Assembly (NCBI GenBank): GCA_964494265.1
Contig: CAZBSL010000002.1
Span: 1 to 39,998, forward strand
Direction: 5' to 3'
DNA length: 39,998 bases
Origin: an uncultured Bacteroidales bacterium
Lineage (GTDB): Bacteria > Bacteroidota > Bacteroidia > Bacteroidales > JAEINX01
Below the pieces are notes generated by a model. It was not told where the DNA came from and made no database searches. It saw only the letters and a list, made by a program, of their open reading frames with translations. Made by a program: the position numbers and the translations under genes. Below are positions 3,567-39,998 of this stretch, one piece after another; the first letter of the stretch is position 1; every line of letters begins with the position of its first letter.

Positions 3567-4868
3567 TTAAACCTTAAAAACTTTAATCAAAGGTTCAAGT
3601 TTTATTCCTCTTGAACCTTTAATGAAAATTGTTGCGTTTTCTAAGCGATTGGCTTCAAACCATTGCATTGCATCTTCTGTTTTTGGAAAAATTTTATGGC
3701 CGCTATTTTTGTTTGCTTCGTAAAATTCAGCACCTATTAAAAAGACATTATCAAATCCTAATTCCCTAATAAGTTTCAAGATTTTGCTATGTTCAGATAA
3801 GCTTTCGTTTCCGAGTTCAAGCATATCACCGATAATCAAAATTTTATTTTTGAAATTTAATTCAGCGAAATTTCGGATTGCCGCCTCCATGCTTGAAGGA
3901 TTGGCGTTATAAGCATCGAGGAAAATTTTATTTTTTTTTGTATTAATAAATTGTGAACGATTATTTTGGGGAATATATTCCTCGATAGCTTGAGCAATAT
4001 TTTCAATTTTAACATTAAAATAATCACCTACACAAATAGCCGCGAGAATATTTTCAAAGTTGTATTTCCCCACAAGATTTGATTTTATTGAAACATCTCC
4101 AAAGCCACTATTCCAAAGAATTTCAACAAACGGATCAGAAGAAATGATTTTTGCCCAGCAGTCTGAATTCTCACTTGTTCCATAAGTGACTTTTTGCAAG
4201 TATTTAGAAAGTTGTTTGAGTGTATTATTATCACTATTGACAAATACTAAACCTTCATTATTTGAAATAAATTTATATAATTCCGCTTTTGCTTTAATAA
4301 TTGCTTCGATACTTCCAAAGCCCACAAGATGAGCTTTTCCAATATTTGTGATGATTCCAAAACCGGGCTTTGAAATATTACATAAAGCTGAAATTTCACC
4401 AATATGATTTGCTCCCATTTCAATAATTGCAATTTCTGTATCATTCGAAATACCAAGTACAGTTAATGGAACTCCAATGTGATTATTAAAATTTCCTGAA
4501 GTTGCTACAACTTTGAATTTCTTCTTCAAAACAGCAGCTATCAATTCTTTTGTTGTCGTTTTTCCGTTTGTTCCGGTTATTCCAATTACCGGGAGATTGA
4601 TTTTTCCCCGATGATAAACCGCTAAATGTTGAAGTGTTTCGAGAACATTTTCGACAAGAATAAACCTATTGCTTTTATTGAAGTTTTCTTCATCAATTAC
4701 AGCGTATTCTGCTCCCTTTTTTAAGGCAGATTCAGCAAATTCATTTCCATTAAAATTCTCTCCTTTTAATGCAAAAAAAATGGAATCGGGTTTTATATTT
4801 CTTGAATCAGTACAAATTACAGGATGTTGACAAAATAGTTTATAAAGATTTTCTATTAAGGTAGGCAT
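3567..4868 (-). CDS. murF: UDP-N-acetylmuramoyl-tripeptide--D-alanyl-D-alanine ligase
   Basis: It has the Mur ligase P-loop GITGTNGKTTTKE, is 433 aa long, and has typical MurF N- and C-terminal architecture. Confidence 0.85.
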   Translation of the reverse strand: MPTLIENLYKLFCQHPVICTDSRNIKPDSIFFALKGENFNGNEFAESALKKGAEYAVIDEENFNKSNRFILVENVLETLQHLAVYHRGKINLPVIGITGTNGKTTTKELIAAVLKKKFKVVATSGNFNNHIGVPLTVLGISNDTEIAIIEMGANHIGEISALCNISKPGFGIITNIGKAHLVGFGSIEAIIKAKAELYKFISNNEGLVFVNSDNNTLKQLSKYLQKVTYGTSENSDCWAKIISSDPFVEILWNSGFGDVSIKSNLVGKYNFENILAAICVGDYFNVKIENIAQAIEEYIPQNNRSQFINTKKNKIFLDAYNANPSSMEAAIRNFAELNFKNKILIIGDMLELGNESLSEHSKILKLIRELGFDNVFLIGAEFYEANKNSGHKIFPKTEDAMQWFEANRLENATIFIKGSRGIKLEPLIKVFKV

Positions 4869-4994
4869 TTTTTTTAATTCAAAATTAGTAAAAAATTTTA
4901 TATTAAATTACTTAGCGAAAAATGCTGTTATAATCCGAAGCCGGCATCACGAATTTTTTTAACTGCTTCAAAATTCTATCTTTCGTTTTCCATT

Positions 4995-5034
4995 AAAAAA
5001 ACCCCGGATATTATATAATAACCGAGGTTTTTTA
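4995..5034 (-). terminator. Probable intrinsic terminator downstream of gldJ (potentially bidirectional)
   Basis: AAAAAACCCCGG ... CCGAGGTTTTTT forms a GC-containing stem (one mismatch). It is flanked by an A run on one side and a T run on the other, about 20 nt past the gldJ stop. Confidence 0.55.
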
Positions 5035-5054
5035 AATAAATTTCATTTTATCTT

Positions 5055-6545
5055 CTATTTCGATTTTTTCGAAGGTATGGGGGAACCAACTCTGCTCATT
5101 GCACAACGGAAACCAATATAATCAGTTGCATGATTTTGATCAAGAAATCTTCTTGCCCCGGGGCTTAGATAATATGCTCGGTCTTTCCAAGAACCTCCTT
5201 TATAAACCCTTGCTTCATCGTTTATCAAAGTTGTTTCTTCATATTCGTACATCAAATTCGTTGTGTTTTTTTCAGCATTTTCTAAAGGCCATTCTTCGCT
5301 ATTGATTACTGTTGAGTGGTCACCATCGCGATAGCTGATATTATTTGCTTTTCGATAGTTTCTTCTGTCAGCATTTTCTTCCGGAGTAACCTCAGTATAT
5401 CTCATATGTCCTATGCTATCCTTTTCCATTAGATTGCCTTCAAAATCAAGAGCTTTGTTTTTAAAAACATTTCCCCGGAAAGGGCTGTAATCACTCATGT
5501 CCTGAGTTGACATCGGACGATAAACGTCAAGCACCCATTCACTAACATTACCGGCCATATTATACAAGCCATAATCATTAGGCCAATAAGAGCCGACAGG
5601 TGCCGGAATATCTGCACCATCGTTTAAAGAACTTGCAACTCCCATATAATCTCCACGGCCTCTTTTGAAATTCGCCATAAACTGTCCATAGTATTTTTTC
5701 TCATCCGAACGTGTATAAGTTCCACTCCAAGGATAGGTTTTACGTTCGACAATACGTTCATAAAGTGTATTTCCAATCAAACCTAAAGCTGCATATTCCC
5801 ATTCGGCCTCAGTAGGGAGACGATATTTTGGAAGCATAATTCCATCCTCCATTTTTGCTCTTCTTTCGCCTGTACCTGATGGATCAAGGTCTGCTAAGGG
5901 TTTATTTACAAGCCCTTCGTATTGGCCGGACAAATATGCATCAGTATTAAAGTTATTTTCGTCTTTTTGATCGGGATCCATTTCAAGAATACCATGCTGG
6001 ATTAAAAGTATTTCGTTAACTCTGTCGGTACGCCATGAACAATAATCATTTGCCTGAACCCATGTAACTCCGACCACGGGATAATCGTGATAAGCCGGAT
6101 GACGTAAATATAATTCAACTAAAGGCTCGTTATAGGCCAATTCATCTCGCCATACATTTGTATCAGGTAAGGCATTACGATACACATCGGGATGATTGCC
6201 GCCGAAAACCCTGTTTAACCAATATAAATATTCAAGGTAATCAAGATTGCTAACTTCTGTTTCGTCAATGTAGAAAGTCGGAACCGTGACTCTGCGAGGA
6301 ACATTATTCCAGTCGAAAAGAAGGTCTTGAATAGTACTTCCCATTACGAAAGTTCCACCTTCAATAAGCACAAGTCCGGGGCCGGTTTTTTGATCAACGT
6401 TTTTTGTAACTTCAAAACCTCCATTTTTTGAGTTATTGTAATCCCATCCGGTGCTTCCTGATTTTTTTCCACCGCCGCATGATGTAAATAACACAACAGA
6501 AGTCACTAAAAATAGTGAAGTAGCGATTTTGTTGAATCTAAACAT
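5055..6545 (-). CDS. gldJ: Gliding motility lipoprotein GldJ (FGE-sulfatase/SUMF1-like fold)
   Basis: The start was moved to Met22 (MFRFNKIATSLFLVTSVVLFTSC, a lipoprotein signal plus Cys). The protein has SUMF1-like blocks (GGTFVMG, YRVxKGGSW-type RVYKGGSWKD, GFRCA). It shows synteny with porU/porV and murF, as I recall for Flavobacterium johnsoniae. Confidence 0.8.
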   Translation of the reverse strand: MFRFNKIATSLFLVTSVVLFTSCGGGKKSGSTGWDYNNSKNGGFEVTKNVDQKTGPGLVLIEGGTFVMGSTIQDLLFDWNNVPRRVTVPTFYIDETEVSNLDYLEYLYWLNRVFGGNHPDVYRNALPDTNVWRDELAYNEPLVELYLRHPAYHDYPVVGVTWVQANDYCSWRTDRVNEILLIQHGILEMDPDQKDENNFNTDAYLSGQYEGLVNKPLADLDPSGTGERRAKMEDGIMLPKYRLPTEAEWEYAALGLIGNTLYERIVERKTYPWSGTYTRSDEKKYYGQFMANFKRGRGDYMGVASSLNDGADIPAPVGSYWPNDYGLYNMAGNVSEWVLDVYRPMSTQDMSDYSPFRGNVFKNKALDFEGNLMEKDSIGHMRYTEVTPEENADRRNYRKANNISYRDGDHSTVINSEEWPLENAEKNTTNLMYEYEETTLINDEARVYKGGSWKDRAYYLSPGARRFLDQNHATDYIGFRCAMSRVGSPIPSKKSK

Positions 6546-34869: not shown

Positions 34870-35169
34870 TTACATAAATGTTAGTCCAATTCTTTTTCCA
34901 AGTCCTGTTTCAAATATTCTGATCAAGGTTGAAAGTTGAATATTTCCTTTAGCATTCTCAAGTTTCGATATGTAACTTTTTTTTGTTCCTGCTTTTATTG
35001 CAAGTTGCTCTTGTGTTATTTTTGCTTCTTTTCTTGCTTCTTTTAACATTTCACTGATTATGTACATATGTGAACGTTCCTCAAAGTCATTTCGCTTTTC
35101 AGTTCCAATTTCTCCGTATTTCTTATTTAACAGTTCATCAAAGTCTTTAATCCCTTTGTAATTTTTCAT
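34870..35169 (-). CDS. XRE-family HTH antitoxin (HigA-like)
   Basis: It has the HTH_3 signature ITQEQLAIKAGTKKSYISKLENAKGNIQLSTL. It is 99 aa and starts 4 nt downstream of the RelE/ParE-type gene. Confidence 0.8.
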   Translation of the reverse strand: MKNYKGIKDFDELLNKKYGEIGTEKRNDFEERSHMYIISEMLKEARKEAKITQEQLAIKAGTKKSYISKLENAKGNIQLSTLIRIFETGLGKRIGLTFM

Positions 35170-35173
35170 TATG

Positions 35174-35509
35174 TTACTTTTTTTCGTTAAAATATTCCTT
35201 TTTCAATTTTTCTGCCAATTCTATGTCTTTCCTAAGAGTTTTTCTTGTCTTTTTTTGAAATCCATTCAATAAAACAACTAATCTCCCTTTATCAAAGAAA
35301 CATAAAATTCGATAAATATTAGATTGATACTCAACTCGAATTTCATAAAGACCGTCAGTTGAGGACAAGTGTTGAAAGAATTTCTTTGGTATTCTTTCAA
35401 CATGCCTTATCAATTTGAAAACGTATTCAATTTTTTCTTGAACTTGTACGTTCTGTTTTGAATAGAATTCAATAAAGTAGTCTTTATAAAAATCAATCTT
35501 TCTTATCAT
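35174..35509 (-). CDS. RelE/ParE-superfamily toxin (HigB / phage Gp49-like)
   Basis: It is 111 aa. YEIRVEYQSNIYRILCFFDKGRLVVLLNGFQKKTRK is typical of Gp49/HigB-type toxins. The toxin-first gene order matches higBA. Confidence 0.75.
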   Translation of the reverse strand: MIRKIDFYKDYFIEFYSKQNVQVQEKIEYVFKLIRHVERIPKKFFQHLSSTDGLYEIRVEYQSNIYRILCFFDKGRLVVLLNGFQKKTRKTLRKDIELAEKLKKEYFNEKK

Positions 35510-37751: not shown

Positions 37752-38993
37752 ATGAAATTCTATGTAATTACTTTTTTAATTTTATGCCTGATTATTTCAC
37801 AACAGGCTTTTCCACAAAAGGAAAATGCAAAAGACGCTTTAACAGGCGAACAGCAAATTGAACTTTCAGAAGGTTTTAGTTTTATTTCATCACGAATTAT
37901 TGCTGAAAATCCTGATATGTTAGTTGTTATGGCTTTCGTATTAAACGAAAATCTTGATTTTATAAGAAATTCATTAGGGCAGACATTACGAAAAATTGGA
38001 CCAAATTGGGTTAACGGTATTGGTGACTGGATAATTGATGAAGGTTACCTTGTTAAAATGTTTGCGGGTGACTCATTCATTATTGAGGGTGATATAGTTG
38101 ACCCGGTAACTCCGATTTCATTAGAAGCAGGATTTCAGTTTGTAAGTTATTTTCCTGAAAATCCTATGGATGCTCTGATTGCTTATGAAACTATCCTTGG
38201 AAACGATCTTGATTTTATAAGAAATTCACAAGGGCAGATATTGCGTAAAATCGGCCCGAATTGGATTAATGGTATTGGTGATTGTAATCCCGGTGAAGGT
38301 TATCTTATTAAGATGTTTGCCGATGATGTTTTAATTTATCCCTATTCATCATCATTTACCTGCGGCGACCCATTCACCGACCCTCGTGATGGACAAGTTT
38401 ACTCCACCGTACAAATTGGCACGCAATGCTGGATGGCAGAAAACCTAAACATAGGTGAAATGATAAACGGTAGTTCAAATATGATAAATAATAGTGTAAT
38501 TGAAAAATATTGTTACTATAATAATACTGCCAATTGCGATGAATATGGTGGTTTGTATCAATGGAACGAAATAATGGAATATAGCACAATACCCGGAGTG
38601 CAAGGCATTTGCCATGCCGGTTGGCATTTACCAACTGATGACGAATGGAAAATACTTGAAGGCACAGTTGACAGCCAATATCCTGTAGGCGACCCTGAAT
38701 GGGATGATACAGGATGGAGGGGTTATGATGCAGGTGAAAAACTTAAATCAACAATAGGCTGGTACTCAGGTGGAAATAAAACAAATGATTTTGGGTTTGA
38801 GGCCCTTCCCGGCGGTTGCTGTACTTCAAGTGGTTATTTCTACAATCTTACAAGCCAAGCCTACTTTTGGTCTTCTTGTGAGTATAGCAGTTCACGTGCC
38901 TGGTATCGTGACCTCTATTCAATCATCAATGGAGTAACTCGTGGCAACTACGATAAGGTACACGGTTTTTCAGTTCGTTGCTTGCAGGATTAA
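37752..38993 (+). CDS. Secreted protein: N-terminal two-module repeat cassette plus a C-terminal Fibrobacter succinogenes major paralogous (FISUMP) domain
   Basis: It has a signal peptide (MKFYVITFLILCLIISQQAFP). Two modules carry LDFIRNSLGQTLRKIGPNWVNGIGD and LDFIRNSQGQILRKIGPNWINGIGD. The C-terminal part has FTDPRDGQVYSTVQIGTQCWMAENLN, YGGLYQW, CHAGWHLPTDDEWKILE, FWSS and FSVRCLQD, typical of TIGR02145-like FISUMP domains. Confidence 0.8.
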   Translation: MKFYVITFLILCLIISQQAFPQKENAKDALTGEQQIELSEGFSFISSRIIAENPDMLVVMAFVLNENLDFIRNSLGQTLRKIGPNWVNGIGDWIIDEGYLVKMFAGDSFIIEGDIVDPVTPISLEAGFQFVSYFPENPMDALIAYETILGNDLDFIRNSQGQILRKIGPNWINGIGDCNPGEGYLIKMFADDVLIYPYSSSFTCGDPFTDPRDGQVYSTVQIGTQCWMAENLNIGEMINGSSNMINNSVIEKYCYYNNTANCDEYGGLYQWNEIMEYSTIPGVQGICHAGWHLPTDDEWKILEGTVDSQYPVGDPEWDDTGWRGYDAGEKLKSTIGWYSGGNKTNDFGFEALPGGCCTSSGYFYNLTSQAYFWSSCEYSSSRAWYRDLYSIINGVTRGNYDKVHGFSVRCLQD

Positions 38994-38995
38994 TT

Positions 38996-39765
38996 GTGCA
39001 CAGAAGATTAAGCAAGATACACAGCACAATGTATTACAAATTGTTTAATCGAACTATAAATGAGATGGTGGACTGTAAGTTTATATTAAAGAGTATTAAC
39101 AGAAAGGTAAAACTGTGGAGGTCGAGCGAACTGATTAACCGAGCTACCCGACAAAGAACTTTAATTATGGACAAAACAGATTTGACCCACCGACAGGGGC
39201 TATCAGAAGAATCTGTCAAACCGCCTTACGGTGCTTTTATCCAACGATAGAGGTGTTGAGCGGATAGGGAAAAGGGATGTTGAAAGAAACATTTCAGGTA
39301 TAAATACAAGAGTTGAACGAAAGTGAACTGACCGATGAGGTGTCGAAATGCATATAGACAGTGTAGTAAACCGGGGGAACTTAATCTGTCCTGGGATAAT
39401 TATAAGGGTAATCTGAAAACACCTCTTATAACAACACTCGGCATATAGGCAGCAAGACTTGTATTTGGGTTTATTTATGGAACTGTGGAAACCAACTGAT
39501 GATGAAAATCGAAACGACACAAGCGGACAAGCCGTGAGGTCAAAAGTAGAGAAGTGTCAGTTGGTGGCGGACTAACTCGTAGTAGTGATGAAATTTCTGT
39601 AATGGAAGTGGAGCGAAGGGGTTAGCTAATGGGAATTCACATTTTACCAACTCAAAAGAGGAAGAGTTTAATTGTAATTCATATTAGAAGAGCCGTATGA
39701 CGGGAGACTATCACGTACGGTTCTGTGAGAGGCTTGGGGTGAAATTCCCCTTGCCTACTCGGCGT
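38996..39765 (+). mobile_element. ORF-less group II intron-like ribozyme (~770 nt); the boundaries are approximate
   Basis: The 5' end is GTGCA (consensus GUGYG) 2 nt after the FISUMP stop. A GC-enriched, structure-rich body follows. An AACTCGTAGTAGTG block at about 39574-39587 resembles the J2/3-domain III junction as I remember it from Ll.LtrB. A short ~60-nt hairpin occupies the place of domain IV (inner stem AACTC/GAGTT with a purine-rich AAAAGAGGAA loop). Domain V is canonical at 39690-39723, and domain VI has a bulged A at about 39757. Only 61-105-aa ORFs without reverse-transcriptase motifs overlap the element. Confidence 0.75.
39690..39760 (+). ncRNA. Group II intron domains V and VI
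   Basis: Domain V is GAGCCGTATGACGGGAGACTATCACGTACGGTTC, 34 nt. It has a 9-bp lower helix (GAGCCGUAU/GUACGGUUC), the AGC triad, a 2-nt AC bulge, and an upper helix capped by a GAGA (GNRA) loop. It is nearly identical in its lower half to the ai5-gamma and Ll.LtrB domain V sequences. Domain VI is GAG-AGGC-uu-GGGG / CCCC-uu-GCCU-A-CUC, with the unpaired A 7-8 nt from the presumed 3' end. Confidence 0.9.
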
Positions 39766-39998
39766 GTGTGCAAAATTCGTTCAATTTAATAATGAAAATT
39801 TGTATTTGAAAATCGAATGAATATTTTTAAAAGTGATTTAGAATATTTGATTGTTTTTTAAAATCGAAAGATTAGTTTAATATTCAAGTAATAGTTATAT
39901 TAAAAGATTATTTTAGAATCTAATAACTATTTTGGAAGTGCGTTAATAACAAATTTAAGTTTTGCAGGCGAGCTTTTAGGGATTTTTTGCTGATTACG

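Follow-up and report, generated by a model that had tools for sequence, protein, structure and literature searches.

The window, that is, the whole stretch of 39,998 nt analysed here, derives from an uncultured Bacteroidales bacterium and carries near its right-hand end a gene for a FISUMP-domain protein with the C-terminus ..GFSVRCLQD*. The gene is followed directly by a 770-nt unit, a predicted group II ribozyme that is complete, with all six domains, but has no IEP ORF. A sequence-only reading of the same DNA had proposed an ORF-less group II intron-like ribozyme, and this is borne out by Rfam matches in domains I and V/VI and by the lack of an ORF with RT motifs. The features of the locus are as follows.

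37752..38993, + strand: gene of the 413-aa FISUMP-domain protein, host and 5' exon (TIGR02145 Fib_succ_major, 152 bits; PF09603, 120 bits)
38988..38993, + strand: IBS1 GAUUAA (Asp codon and TAA stop), final 6 nt of the 5' exon, complementary to EBS1 UUAAUC
38994..39763, + strand: whole predicted ORF-less group II intron unit, 770 nt (5' junctions, 3' ends, tandem junctions, EBS1-IBS1 register)
38994..38998, + strand: 5' terminal pentamer UUGUG, position 1 being U; homologous to GUGUG/GUGCG in relatives (alignments)
38999..39487, + strand: domain I (RNAalifold consensus of 14 copies)
39072..39186, + strand: subfamily-specific 5'-subterminal insertion of ~115 nt, variable in sequence (comparison with the sister subfamily)
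39179..39299, + strand: domain I core segment (Rfam group-II-D1D4-2)
39371..39394, + strand: EBS1 hairpin, stem CCGGG/CCUGG and 14-nt loop GGAACUUAAUCUGU; the pair 39374-39391 is GC in 12 copies, AU in 1 and GU in 1
39381-39386, + strand: EBS1 UUAAUC, pairing with the GAUUAA exon end
39491..39566, + strand: domain II; many pairs of its consensus helix, 39493-39501 / 39555-39563, are compensatory
39572..39625, + strand: domain III; the basal helix reads CUAACUC/GGGGUUAG where copies lack the ORF and UGAAGUC/GGGCUUCA where they are full-length, differing by compensatory changes
39626..39687, + strand: residual domain IV, hairpin of ~62 nt with a purine-rich, SD-like stretch (alignment with full-length copies)
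39690..39723, + strand: domain V with AGC triad, AC bulge and GAGA loop (Rfam RF00029)
39727..39760, + strand: domain VI with bulged branch-site A39757 and 3-bp basal helix GAG/CUC (Rfam RF00029, 128 aligned copies)
39761..39763, + strand: 3' tail GGC, with G in place of the penultimate A of the family consensus (GAC or GAU)

The borders were set by 40 distinct 5' junctions, ~120 3' ends, tandem junctions and the EBS1-IBS1 register within a comparison set of ~170 related loci (171 loci in the segment check), to which labels such as L004, L047 and L130 refer. Tandem junctions between copies read CTCGGC followed immediately by TTGTGCAC. Border alignment moves the 5' end from 38996 (GUGCA), as first proposed, to 38994 (UUGUG) and the 3' end from 39765 to 39763 (..CUCGGC), and the intron abuts TAA (0 nt) instead of starting 2 nt past the FISUMP stop codon. 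With the start shifted, position 5 is the consensus G, the odd A reported there being an error of register, and the unusual base is therefore U at position 1. The observation that the 3' end is not AY was real (a GC end), and it accompanies U1. As to TGTGCA, noted at both borders, the copy at 39766-39771 exists but sits in the 3' flank, outside the unit. GC content (0.41 in the element) is markedly higher than in the whole window (0.325) and the 3' flank (0.23), as had been claimed for the surroundings in general, but lies only slightly above that of the FISUMP gene (0.378).

Evidence for a folded ribozyme comes from covariance models and from compensatory change. Rfam Intron_gpII (RF00029) matches 39688-39763 with 61 bits (gathering score 40, E ~1e-9), covering domains V and VI, and group-II-D1D4-2 (RF01999) matches 39179-39299 with 62.6 bits (gathering score 36, E 2e-10) over the full model, 1-118. 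This domain I match answers an objection foreseen in the sequence-only reading, a lack of any covariance-model match upstream of domain V, which therefore does not arise. Domain V lies exactly where it had been placed; its 34-mer occurs once in the window and has 0 matches in 100 shuffles. The proposed domain VI helix with a single bulged A is likewise found, A39757 being conserved in 128 copies 6 nt from the 3' end, and so is the small domain IV hairpin with SD-like purines, now placed at 39626-39687. The consensus structure of the 14 copies comprises 198 pairs, 98% of them standard-paired against ~39% in slid controls, and 67 of the 198 are altered on both sides. The closing helix of domain I, for example, pairs 39002 with 39484 as AU in five copies and UA in nine. 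The ~115-nt insertion sits in the loop of helix GGUGG (39067-39071) / CCACC (39187-39191); it is missing in the sister subfamily, and FISUMP-type copies carry several versions of it that are unrelated in sequence.

Pairing of EBS1 with the 5' exon, a check suggested at the outset, was found over 6 nt (UUAAUC with GAUUAA), and EBS1 and IBS1 covary over six exon sequences (GAUUAA, GACUGA, GAUUAG, UUCAUA, CCAUAC and CAGGUA). No complement that could serve as EBS2 was seen when the sequence 5' of EBS1 was inspected in the alignments against exon positions -7 to -12. Two candidates complementary to exon CAGUUCG were set aside as chance: subfamilies that have other targets also conserve CGAACU (39050-39058), and CGAACUG, which lies in the domain I insertion, is missing from other FISUMP-type copies.

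The window copy is not the best preserved of its kind. It keeps 190 of the 198 consensus pairs (96%), the joint lowest score of the 14 copies; four of its eight broken pairs fall in residual domain IV, the probable IEP-binding region, and domain V has one C.A mismatch (39701-39710) in the distal helix. The consensus termini 5' GUGYG / 3' AY are replaced by UUGUG...GC, where relatives have GUGUG/GUGCG...AC/AU. Together with the degenerate domain IV, the lost start codon and a location where host protein synthesis needs no splicing, these traits could describe a decaying relic, a copy that no longer splices or moves and persists as neutral DNA behind a stop codon. However, U1 and penultimate G are also borne, at many sites, by full-length copies whose IEPs are intact, the TTGTG form being found at 26 distinct after-stop sites. 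On this distribution, the U1/penultimate-G pair is a lineage trait and not a private lesion of the window copy. The same domain V mismatch is common to L158 and to the full-length, IEP-encoding copy of L130, and the overwhelming majority of consensus pairs are intact, so that a relic is considered unlikely. A contact between the first and penultimate nucleotides of group II introns was reportedly described by Chanfreau and Jacquier in 1993.

Comparison with full-length relatives indicates how the ORF was lost. The window element is, as far as alignment can tell, a clean deletion derivative (~1.23 kb missing) of a 2.0-kb intron encoding a 416-aa En-less RT/maturase. In residual domain IV, the Shine-Dalgarno sequence of the former IEP is still present as AAGAGG (39656-39661), followed by AAG (39662-39664) where the start codon used to be. 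ORF-less L004 retains the Shine-Dalgarno sequence and the first ~7 codons before a jump to ~12 nt before domain V, and the window copy is a decayed version of this arrangement. The 90-, 61- and 105-aa ORFs in the element have no Pfam match, in agreement with the earlier statement that none has RT motifs, and no IEP or RT gene was found in the 40-kb window. The suggested search for IEP-carrying full-length siblings yielded copies with intact 416-aa IEPs. Among the relatives, IEP ORFs are intact in 14/14 full-length copies (416-438 aa, YADD); the IEP of L047 matches TIGR04416 with 386 bits and contains only the domains RVT_1 and GIIM. Compensatory changes distinguish the domain III helix of ORF-less copies from that of full-length ones, which suggests selection on the ribozyme after ORF loss.

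ORF-less and IEP-encoding copies are found side by side. L130 holds an ORF-less copy of the window type, with 95.9% identity over a 317-nt stretch that runs through the ORF-less domain IV, and in tandem behind it a full-length copy; in L149 a full-length copy precedes the start of a further copy, ORF-less or full-length. ORF-less copies lie behind at least three different FISUMP genes, also in tandem arrays. In L004, the window's own gene is followed by a copy of 776 nt, and a 100% identical copy follows another FISUMP gene, of 225 aa, in L131/L164, which points to recent spread. Tandem junctions and identical copies derive from short-read metagenome assemblies of a repeat. In the sister subfamily, at least eight distinct complete ORF-less copies of 632-652 nt were present among the fetched loci, and ORF-less copies are numerous in Bacteroidota.

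The repeat character of the element raises the question of assembly. The window copy is composed as a mosaic: 38994-39350 resembles L004, 39390-39500 is unique and 39507-39763 resembles L158. The middle segment and the 3' junction of this copy were not seen in any other of the 171 loci, and part of the sequence could therefore be an assembly chimera. For the same gene, L004 shows another intron version and another 3' neighbour, and of the six contigs listed for the host gene, five end within the element after 100-122 nt, as is typical of assemblies at repeats. Accordingly, the ORF-less state, or only the exact sequence, might be ascribed to mis-assembly of a multi-copy repeat. Against this, the same domain IV junction recurs in independent assemblies and samples (L004, L131, L164, L158 and L169), and sister-subfamily ORF-less copies are present in a complete Maribacter chromosome and in the plasmid of a Tenacibaculum isolate. 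Doubt is therefore confined to the fine mosaic and does not extend to the ORF-less form, which is real; an artefact is very improbable as an account of the locus, while the exact sequence of the window copy may be a mosaic of assembly or recombination. The 3' flank GTGTGTGCA may or may not be the remnant of a further tandem copy, its similarity to intron copies extending over only a few bases.

Insertion is tied to the end of the coding sequence. Of 40 distinct 5' junctions in the related loci, 35 lie exactly after a stop codon, the homing codons being Asp-stop (GAUUAA), and 33 of these 35 encode ..RC[LIV]xD*. A FISUMP-end target would carry ..TGCTTGCAGGATTAA, and splicing at the window locus would join ..GGATTAA to GTGTGTGCAAAA.. 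FISUMP proteins have been reported as DGR targets (PMC11661182); involvement of a DGR was rejected here, the window having neither a template repeat matching the gene 3' end nor an RT gene, and no repeat of the host-gene segment 38401-38993 occurs anywhere in the 40 kb. Since the element sits behind the stop codon, the host protein would be the same whether the RNA is spliced or unspliced, and the site would therefore be a safe harbour, repeated across the paralogous FISUMP family. The locus also illustrates how a group II intron uses the many members of one paralogous gene family as places to land without harm.

In appearance the lineage is IIC-like. Most IIC introns have a domain VI basal helix of 3 bp and a G at -3 (PMC4748821), and both marks are present (GAG/CUC, then G-(A/G)-C), together with a 6-nt EBS1. 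In pairwise matches, as distinct from a tree, the sibling IEPs, which are of 416-417 aa and have RVT_1 and GIIM as their only domains, are nearest to GsI-IIC RT among PDB entries (5e-48; the RTs of IIA, IIB and other IIC introns reach 3e-34 at best). Targeting differs within the lineage. In the sister subfamily, hairpins lie 6-10 nt upstream and the 5' exons have a mean folding z of -1.14 (n=26), whereas no hairpin target was found in FISUMP-subfamily 5' exons (mean z -0.02, n=37). Judged by these exons, the FISUMP subfamily recognises the end of a coding sequence by its sequence, unlike typical IIC introns, which target DNA hairpins (terminators or attC). Ectopic sites keep TGC-NTN-AAN upstream of IBS1, and some recognition beyond EBS1-IBS1 therefore exists. 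Targeting of attC sites or integrons, considered for the conserved flanks of the sister subfamily, is not supported, the introns being co-oriented with upstream genes in gene-intron arrays; the neighbouring recombinase in Tenacibaculum is of generic Xer type and scores below the integron-integrase cut-off. In viral contigs, the domain VI motif had 0 matches, and one short unrelated phage match was seen.

Collectively, the most probable explanation is that 38994-39763 holds a non-autonomous intron without an ORF, derived by deletion from a mobile IIC-like lineage that retrohomes immediately 3' of FISUMP stop codons, and that this intron is mobilised in trans. The FISUMP gene transcript would carry the element into RNA, and the 416-aa En-less RT/maturase of a full-length sibling elsewhere in the genome would bind the ORF-less RNA. 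The excised RNA would then reverse-splice into other FISUMP gene ends and be copied into DNA; reverse splicing into an already occupied end would generate tandem arrays. A potential source of a trans-acting IEP is seen on related contigs (L130), the window's own 40 kb being without an RT. Service in trans was one of the options of the sequence-only reading and is favoured over decay and domestication by full-length siblings with intact IEPs, by the tandem arrangement, by the identical copy at two genes and by the compensatory changes. Speaking against mobility of the window copy itself are its C.A mismatch in domain V, the four broken domain IV pairs and the loss of ATG.

The domesticated alternative deserves attention since HYERs, the hydrolytic endonucleolytic ribozymes described as programmable nucleases (Liu et al. 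2024, as relayed in PMC11754743 and PMC12990946), are ORF-less group IIC introns, and the lineage is IIC-like; the link is therefore legitimate as a category. If the IIC assignment holds, the window element is a group IIC intron without a protein-coding region, with a 62-nt domain IV and no Pfam-supported ORF. It might act independently of an IEP as an EBS1-guided hydrolytic endonuclease on RNA or ssDNA, or in cis as a processor of FISUMP mRNA, and be kept for this activity and not for mobility. HYERs cut DNA and RNA via a 6-nt site, the length of EBS1 here, hydrolysis is the main in vitro reaction of IIC introns, and the ribozyme helices of the abundant ORF-less copies in Bacteroidota are conserved by compensatory change. 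However, reverse splicing needs structural conservation equally, no sign of a host benefit was found, and ORF-less copies share homing sites and tandem arrays with IEP-encoding siblings, a pattern of parasitic co-mobilisation. A function of this kind is quite improbable for the window element. By description, it resembles HYERs in being a bacterial ribozyme of IIC type that lacks an IEP ORF and has a single 6-nt exon- or target-binding sequence, and the sizes are of similar order (HYER1, 637 nt; sister-subfamily copies, 632-652 nt; window copy, 770 nt). It differs in its position at a retrohoming site beside IEP-encoding siblings and in its U1, penultimate G and ~115-nt domain I insertion.

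The lineage is previously undescribed; it inserts exactly after the stop codons of a single family of surface-protein genes. It is tempting to go further, although with less than even confidence, and to propose a distinct IIC-like lineage that has exchanged hairpin targets for homing by sequence to the Asp-stop end of FISUMP paralogues and that is mobile with U1 and penultimate G as a natural co-variation of the first/penultimate contact. On this proposal, its numerous ORF-less derivatives could be natural HYER-like ribozymes guided by 6 nt, or could act in cis to process the 3' ends of FISUMP mRNAs. Interest in ORF-less group II introns rose once ORF-less IIC introns were shown to be programmable nucleases. 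One lineage here offers side by side IEP-encoding and ORF-less forms, copies evidently still mobile whose termini are canonical (G1...A) or non-canonical (U1...G), and a switch from hairpin (structure) to gene-family stop-codon (sequence) targeting. This natural comparison series therefore makes testable the target choice of IIC-type introns, the co-variation of first and penultimate nucleotides, and the standing of ORF-less derivatives as parasites or as ribozymes with activities of their own.

Mobilisation in trans has precedents. ORF-less bacterial group II introns have long been seen as rare (Zimmerly & Semper 2015, PMC4424553), and PMC4424553 also describes the general pattern of service in trans by the IEP of a sibling, the Trichodesmium dnaN introns being an example. 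The window element is similarly a deletion derivative that keeps its ribozyme alongside related IEP-encoding introns. Known cases interrupt coding sequence and must therefore splice, whereas host expression at the window locus is independent of splicing because the element lies behind a stop codon; the element is, moreover, multi-copy across a paralogous family and in tandem arrays. That an intron can persist in part is illustrated by L158, with a 5' intron fragment of 51 nt. With the IIC introns O.i.I1, B.h.I1, GsI-IIC and A.v.I2, the lineage shares the 3-bp domain VI helix, G at -3 and, in the sister subfamily, insertion after hairpins, and it appears to share an En-less IEP of ~416 aa (nearest solved structure, GsI-IIC RT) and a short EBS1-IBS1 pairing without detectable EBS2. 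It differs in FISUMP-subfamily 5' exons without a stem-loop (mean z ~0) and in a ribozyme larger than classic IIC cores. The IIB1 lineage of Avi.groEL and EcKTE56.groEL occupies housekeeping genes' start or stop codons (PMC12584367) and is likewise tied to the termination codon of a specific gene, with a variable 5'-subterminal insertion in domain I. Its IIB1 ribozyme, however, interrupts the stop codon itself, in housekeeping genes present as single copies, and has an insertion of 300-700 nt, whereas the window element is IIC-like, sits just after the stop of a multi-copy surface-protein family and has an insertion of ~115 nt.

The flagged region holds a genuine ORF-less group II intron, lying directly behind the stop codon of the host FISUMP gene (37752–38993, + strand). 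At curated thresholds, an Rfam scan of the whole window gives exactly two matches, both on the + strand and both within this region: group-II-D1D4-2, a domain I model matching upstream of domain V (62.6 bits, threshold 36), and Intron_gpII, covering domains V and VI (61 bits, threshold 40). The second match bears out the domain V that a sequence-only reading had proposed, with its AGC triad, AC bulge and GNRA-type GAGA loop, and the domain VI with a single bulged A. The domain V 34-mer has a single match in the window and none in 100 shuffles. Pfam finds no match for the three small ORFs overlapping the element, in line with their described lack of RT motifs, and no RT gene is present in the window. 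The G+C excess reported for the element (41%) holds against the window (32.5%) and the 3′ flank (23%), but is only slight against the FISUMP gene (37.8%).

Features of the intron and its 5′ exon
38988–38993, +, IBS1 GAUUAA (Asp codon plus TAA), end of the 5′ exon
38994–39763, +, ORF-less intron
39179–39299, +, group-II-D1D4-2 match
39371–39394, +, hairpin with EBS1 loop GGAACUUAAUCUGU
39381–39386, +, EBS1 UUAAUC, complement of the last six exon bases
39688–39763, +, Intron_gpII match
39690–39723, +, domain V
39757, +, single bulged A of domain VI

The junctions of relatives displace the borders first given (38996–39765, insertion 2 nt after the stop codon). On the 3′ side, ∼120 copies end in ..CUACUCGA(C/U), a canonical AY 6 nt past the bulged A; the window copy ends in ..CUCGGC, with 39763 as last base and G replacing the penultimate A, so that AY is indeed missing, as had been noticed. 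At the other end, 35 of 40 distinct 5′ junctions of the window's subfamily fall directly after a stop codon, the first bases behind it being GUGUG, GUGCG or UUGUG, and the window's TTGTGCAC aligns base for base with GTGTGCAC and GTGCGCAC of relatives. Tandem junctions read CTCGGC/TTGTGCAC. Therefore, the unit is 38994–39763 (770 nt), starting directly behind the TAA. With this start, position 5 is G and not A, the unusual base is U at position 1, and the second of the two TGTGCA motifs seen at the borders belongs to the flank.

The anticipated pairing of EBS1 with the 5′ exon is found, and both partners covary among copies, which fixes the 5′ junction independently of alignments.

IBS1 and EBS1 in other copies (fetched loci)
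IBS1 GACUGA, EBS1 UUAGUC: L133, L146
IBS1 GAUUAG, EBS1 CUAGUC: L137
IBS1 UUCAUA, EBS1 UAUGAA: sister subfamily (L031, L042, L111)
IBS1 CCAUAC, EBS1 GUAUG: L061
IBS1 CAGGUA, EBS1 UGCCUG: L018

The window has 21 GATTAA sites on each strand, of which only the one at the FISUMP gene end is occupied. Copies with U at position 1 (U1) in L154/L166 (full-length) and L165 lie at non-FISUMP sites, ..KCVND* and ..ACIKG*, both of which still match TGC-NTN-AAN-GRT-TAR. Target recognition must therefore include one or more elements beyond IBS1, and the ectopic pattern hints that it extends to about −15. Tandems are of several kinds: in L130, a full-length copy with an intact intron-encoded protein (IEP) follows directly on the last 317 nt of a window-type ORF-less copy (95.9% identity, extending through the ORF-less domain IV); in L149, a full-length copy precedes another copy; and L158 shows the order ORF-less, ORF-less, 51-nt fragment. 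The preceding intron's end in these tandems shows no match to IBS1; arrays must therefore lengthen as further copies home to the original FISUMP site, upstream of the resident one. The L158 fragment (reverse strand, 898–950), a window-type 5′ end with G1, starts GTGTGCACAGAAGATT and is followed by unrelated sequence. The window's 3′ flank starts GTGTGTGCA (39764–39772), possibly a shorter remnant of this kind.

At least 10 metagenomic contigs encode the FISUMP protein; five of the six shown end 100–122 nt inside the element, the kind of break that repeats cause in assemblies. A scan limited to a single genome for each species, with the domain VI sequence TTGGGGTGAAATTCCCCTTG, gives at least 118 stretches. 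Among the matches listed, most are from Bacteroidota, a complete Maribacter chromosome alone contributing many, and the loci are of two types: full-length loci, with domain III and domain V matches ∼1.3 kb apart, and ORF-less loci, aligning unbroken from domain II to domain VI over 632–652 nt. A metagenome scan with a 5′-proximal motif gives 46 loci of the window's own subfamily. The IEP-bearing siblings whose search had been suggested are ∼2.0 kb long, their domain IV comprising a Shine–Dalgarno (SD) sequence and a 416-aa ORF (MIEEL...), with YADD in the IEP of all 14 full-length copies. That of the full-length L047 is a group II RT/maturase (TIGR04416, 386 bits; RVT_1 and GIIM domains; no endonuclease domain), with GsI-IIC RT as its best relative of solved structure. 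ORF-less copies retain the SD and ∼7 codons and resume ∼12 nt 5′ of domain V, the junction in L004 being AAGAGG ATG ATT GAA ATG TTA AAT AC/TTGTCAAGAAGAGCCG; in the window copy, the former ATG is AAG. The purine-rich, SD-like loop pointed out in the domain IV hairpin is therefore what remains of the start site for IEP translation. For Ll.LtrB, this region is reportedly the maturase's primary binding site (work of Wank et al., 1999).

Mis-assembly, raised earlier as a source of the ORF-less state, does not account for it: the state is not an artefact, because it recurs in independent assemblies and, in the sister subfamily (related introns at other targets), in the closed Maribacter chromosome and an isolate's Tenacibaculum plasmid. 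Behind the window's own gene, L004 has a 776-nt ORF-less copy 100% identical to that in L131/L164, which follows a different FISUMP gene (225 aa). This identity and the tandems of L130, L149 and L158 speak for mobilisation in trans by a sibling's IEP. The window copy is a mosaic: 38994–39350 is L004-like, 39390–39500 is unique and 39507–39763 is identical to L158; neither the unique segment nor the copy's 3′ junction is seen in the other fetched loci. L158 is mosaic too (5′ half as full-length L130, 3′ half as the window copy), and the copies compared (window, L004, L158 and L156) share segments with different siblings. Mosaicism could reflect recombination or gene conversion between copies, or short-read assembly chimeras. 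The best explanation of the element is that it is a non-autonomous copy from an IIC-like lineage, newly recognised here, with FISUMP stop codons as homing sites and unusual U1...G termini.

Termini in 26 distinct complete copies
Position 1 G, penultimate A: 15 copies
Position 1 U, penultimate G: 9 copies
Position 1 G, penultimate G: 1 copy
Position 1 U, penultimate A: 1 copy

Since full-length introns with intact IEPs are among the U1 copies, and U1 copies fill 26 different after-stop sites, these termini appear to be a working lineage trait, not damage. The first and penultimate intron nucleotides are said to be in contact in yeast ai5gamma (Chanfreau and Jacquier, 1993), and the U1...G pattern looks like natural covariation of this contact; the association may stem from one evolutionary event only.

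Alignment of 14 copies, ORFs removed, yields an RNAalifold consensus of 198 pairs. Standard pairs fill 98% of cells, against ∼39% after shifting the 3′ partner by 1–3 columns, and 67 of the 198 pairs have changed on both sides. In the domain III basal helix, ORF-less copies have CUAACUC/GGGGUUAG where full-length copies have UGAAGUC/GGGCUUCA, a compensatory difference indicating that structure has been preserved since ORF loss. Of the 198 pairs, 190 are intact in the window copy, which shares the lowest score; four broken pairs are in the domain IV stump, and the one in domain V, C·A, also occurs in the IEP-encoding L130. The copy shows slight wear but is essentially intact.

Several features fit subgroup IIC. 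According to PMC4748821, a 3-bp basal helix in domain VI and G at position −3 are found in most introns of this subgroup; the element's family has a GAG/CUC basal helix followed by G-A-C. EBS1 is short, no EBS2 is detected, and the siblings' IEP lacks an En domain and is closest to GsI-IIC RT. In sister-subfamily 5′ exons, a terminal hairpin often lies 6–10 nt upstream of the point of insertion (mean z −1.14, n = 26), whereas 5′ exons of the FISUMP subfamily lack such a signal (mean z −0.02, n = 37). The FISUMP subfamily is thus IIC-like, but differs from IIC in type of target, a defining trait. It also has a variable ∼115-nt insertion (39072–39186) in a domain I hairpin loop, absent from the sister subfamily. 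The ORF-less IIC introns known as HYERs recognise a 6-nt site (PMC11754743, PMC12990946), and the element would fit this category on sequence grounds. Reliance of ORF-less bacterial introns on a sibling's IEP is known and used to be regarded as rare (PMC4424553). The FISUMP lineage runs parallel to a IIB1 lineage specialised for start/stop codons of housekeeping genes, with a 5′-subterminal domain I insertion (PMC12584367), but differs in ribozyme class and in its multi-copy target family. We found no paper connecting group II introns with FISUMP genes. FISUMP-domain proteins are reported as DGR targets (PMC11661182); the window contains no DGR template repeat or DGR RT for the gene at 37752–38993.

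Sister-subfamily introns (L008–L125, e.g. L113, L081, L061 and L019) occupy a conserved site: 73 of 124 3′ flanks carry (A)CGTT-R-N5-CA-W, starting 6–9 nt past the intron, and 5′ flanks ending in ..GTTGCTTAACCACGCAACTAACCATA are common to several genera. The site is attC-like in outline, but its identification as attC is not supported. In Maribacter sp. IgM3_T14_3 (L019, chromosome NZ_CP187138.1, 1–8000), one full-length and three ORF-less introns form a gene–intron–gene–intron array within 8 kb, each directly 3′ of a co-oriented 227–391-aa ORF. The related ORF-less copy on the Tenacibaculum finnmarkense plasmid CP116296.1 (L007, 3771–4321) has a partial domain I match (model positions 43–118) and is probably 5′-truncated, because the annotated end of a PD-(D/E)XK nuclease CDS overlaps the stretch where its 5′ portion would be expected; 300 nt downstream is a gene for a Xer-like tyrosine recombinase. 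The Maribacter sp. 4G9 contig (L010) also carries group II introns of other Rfam D1–D4 types, D1D4-3 and D1D4-1 (1557–1755 and 4799–5090, − strand), indicating that several intron lineages coexist in such genomes. Finally, a Gp49 (HigB-like) and HTH_3 gene pair, a probable toxin–antitoxin module, lies upstream of a LytTR response regulator and the FISUMP gene (window ∼34870–35509, − strand; L001 7119–7758).
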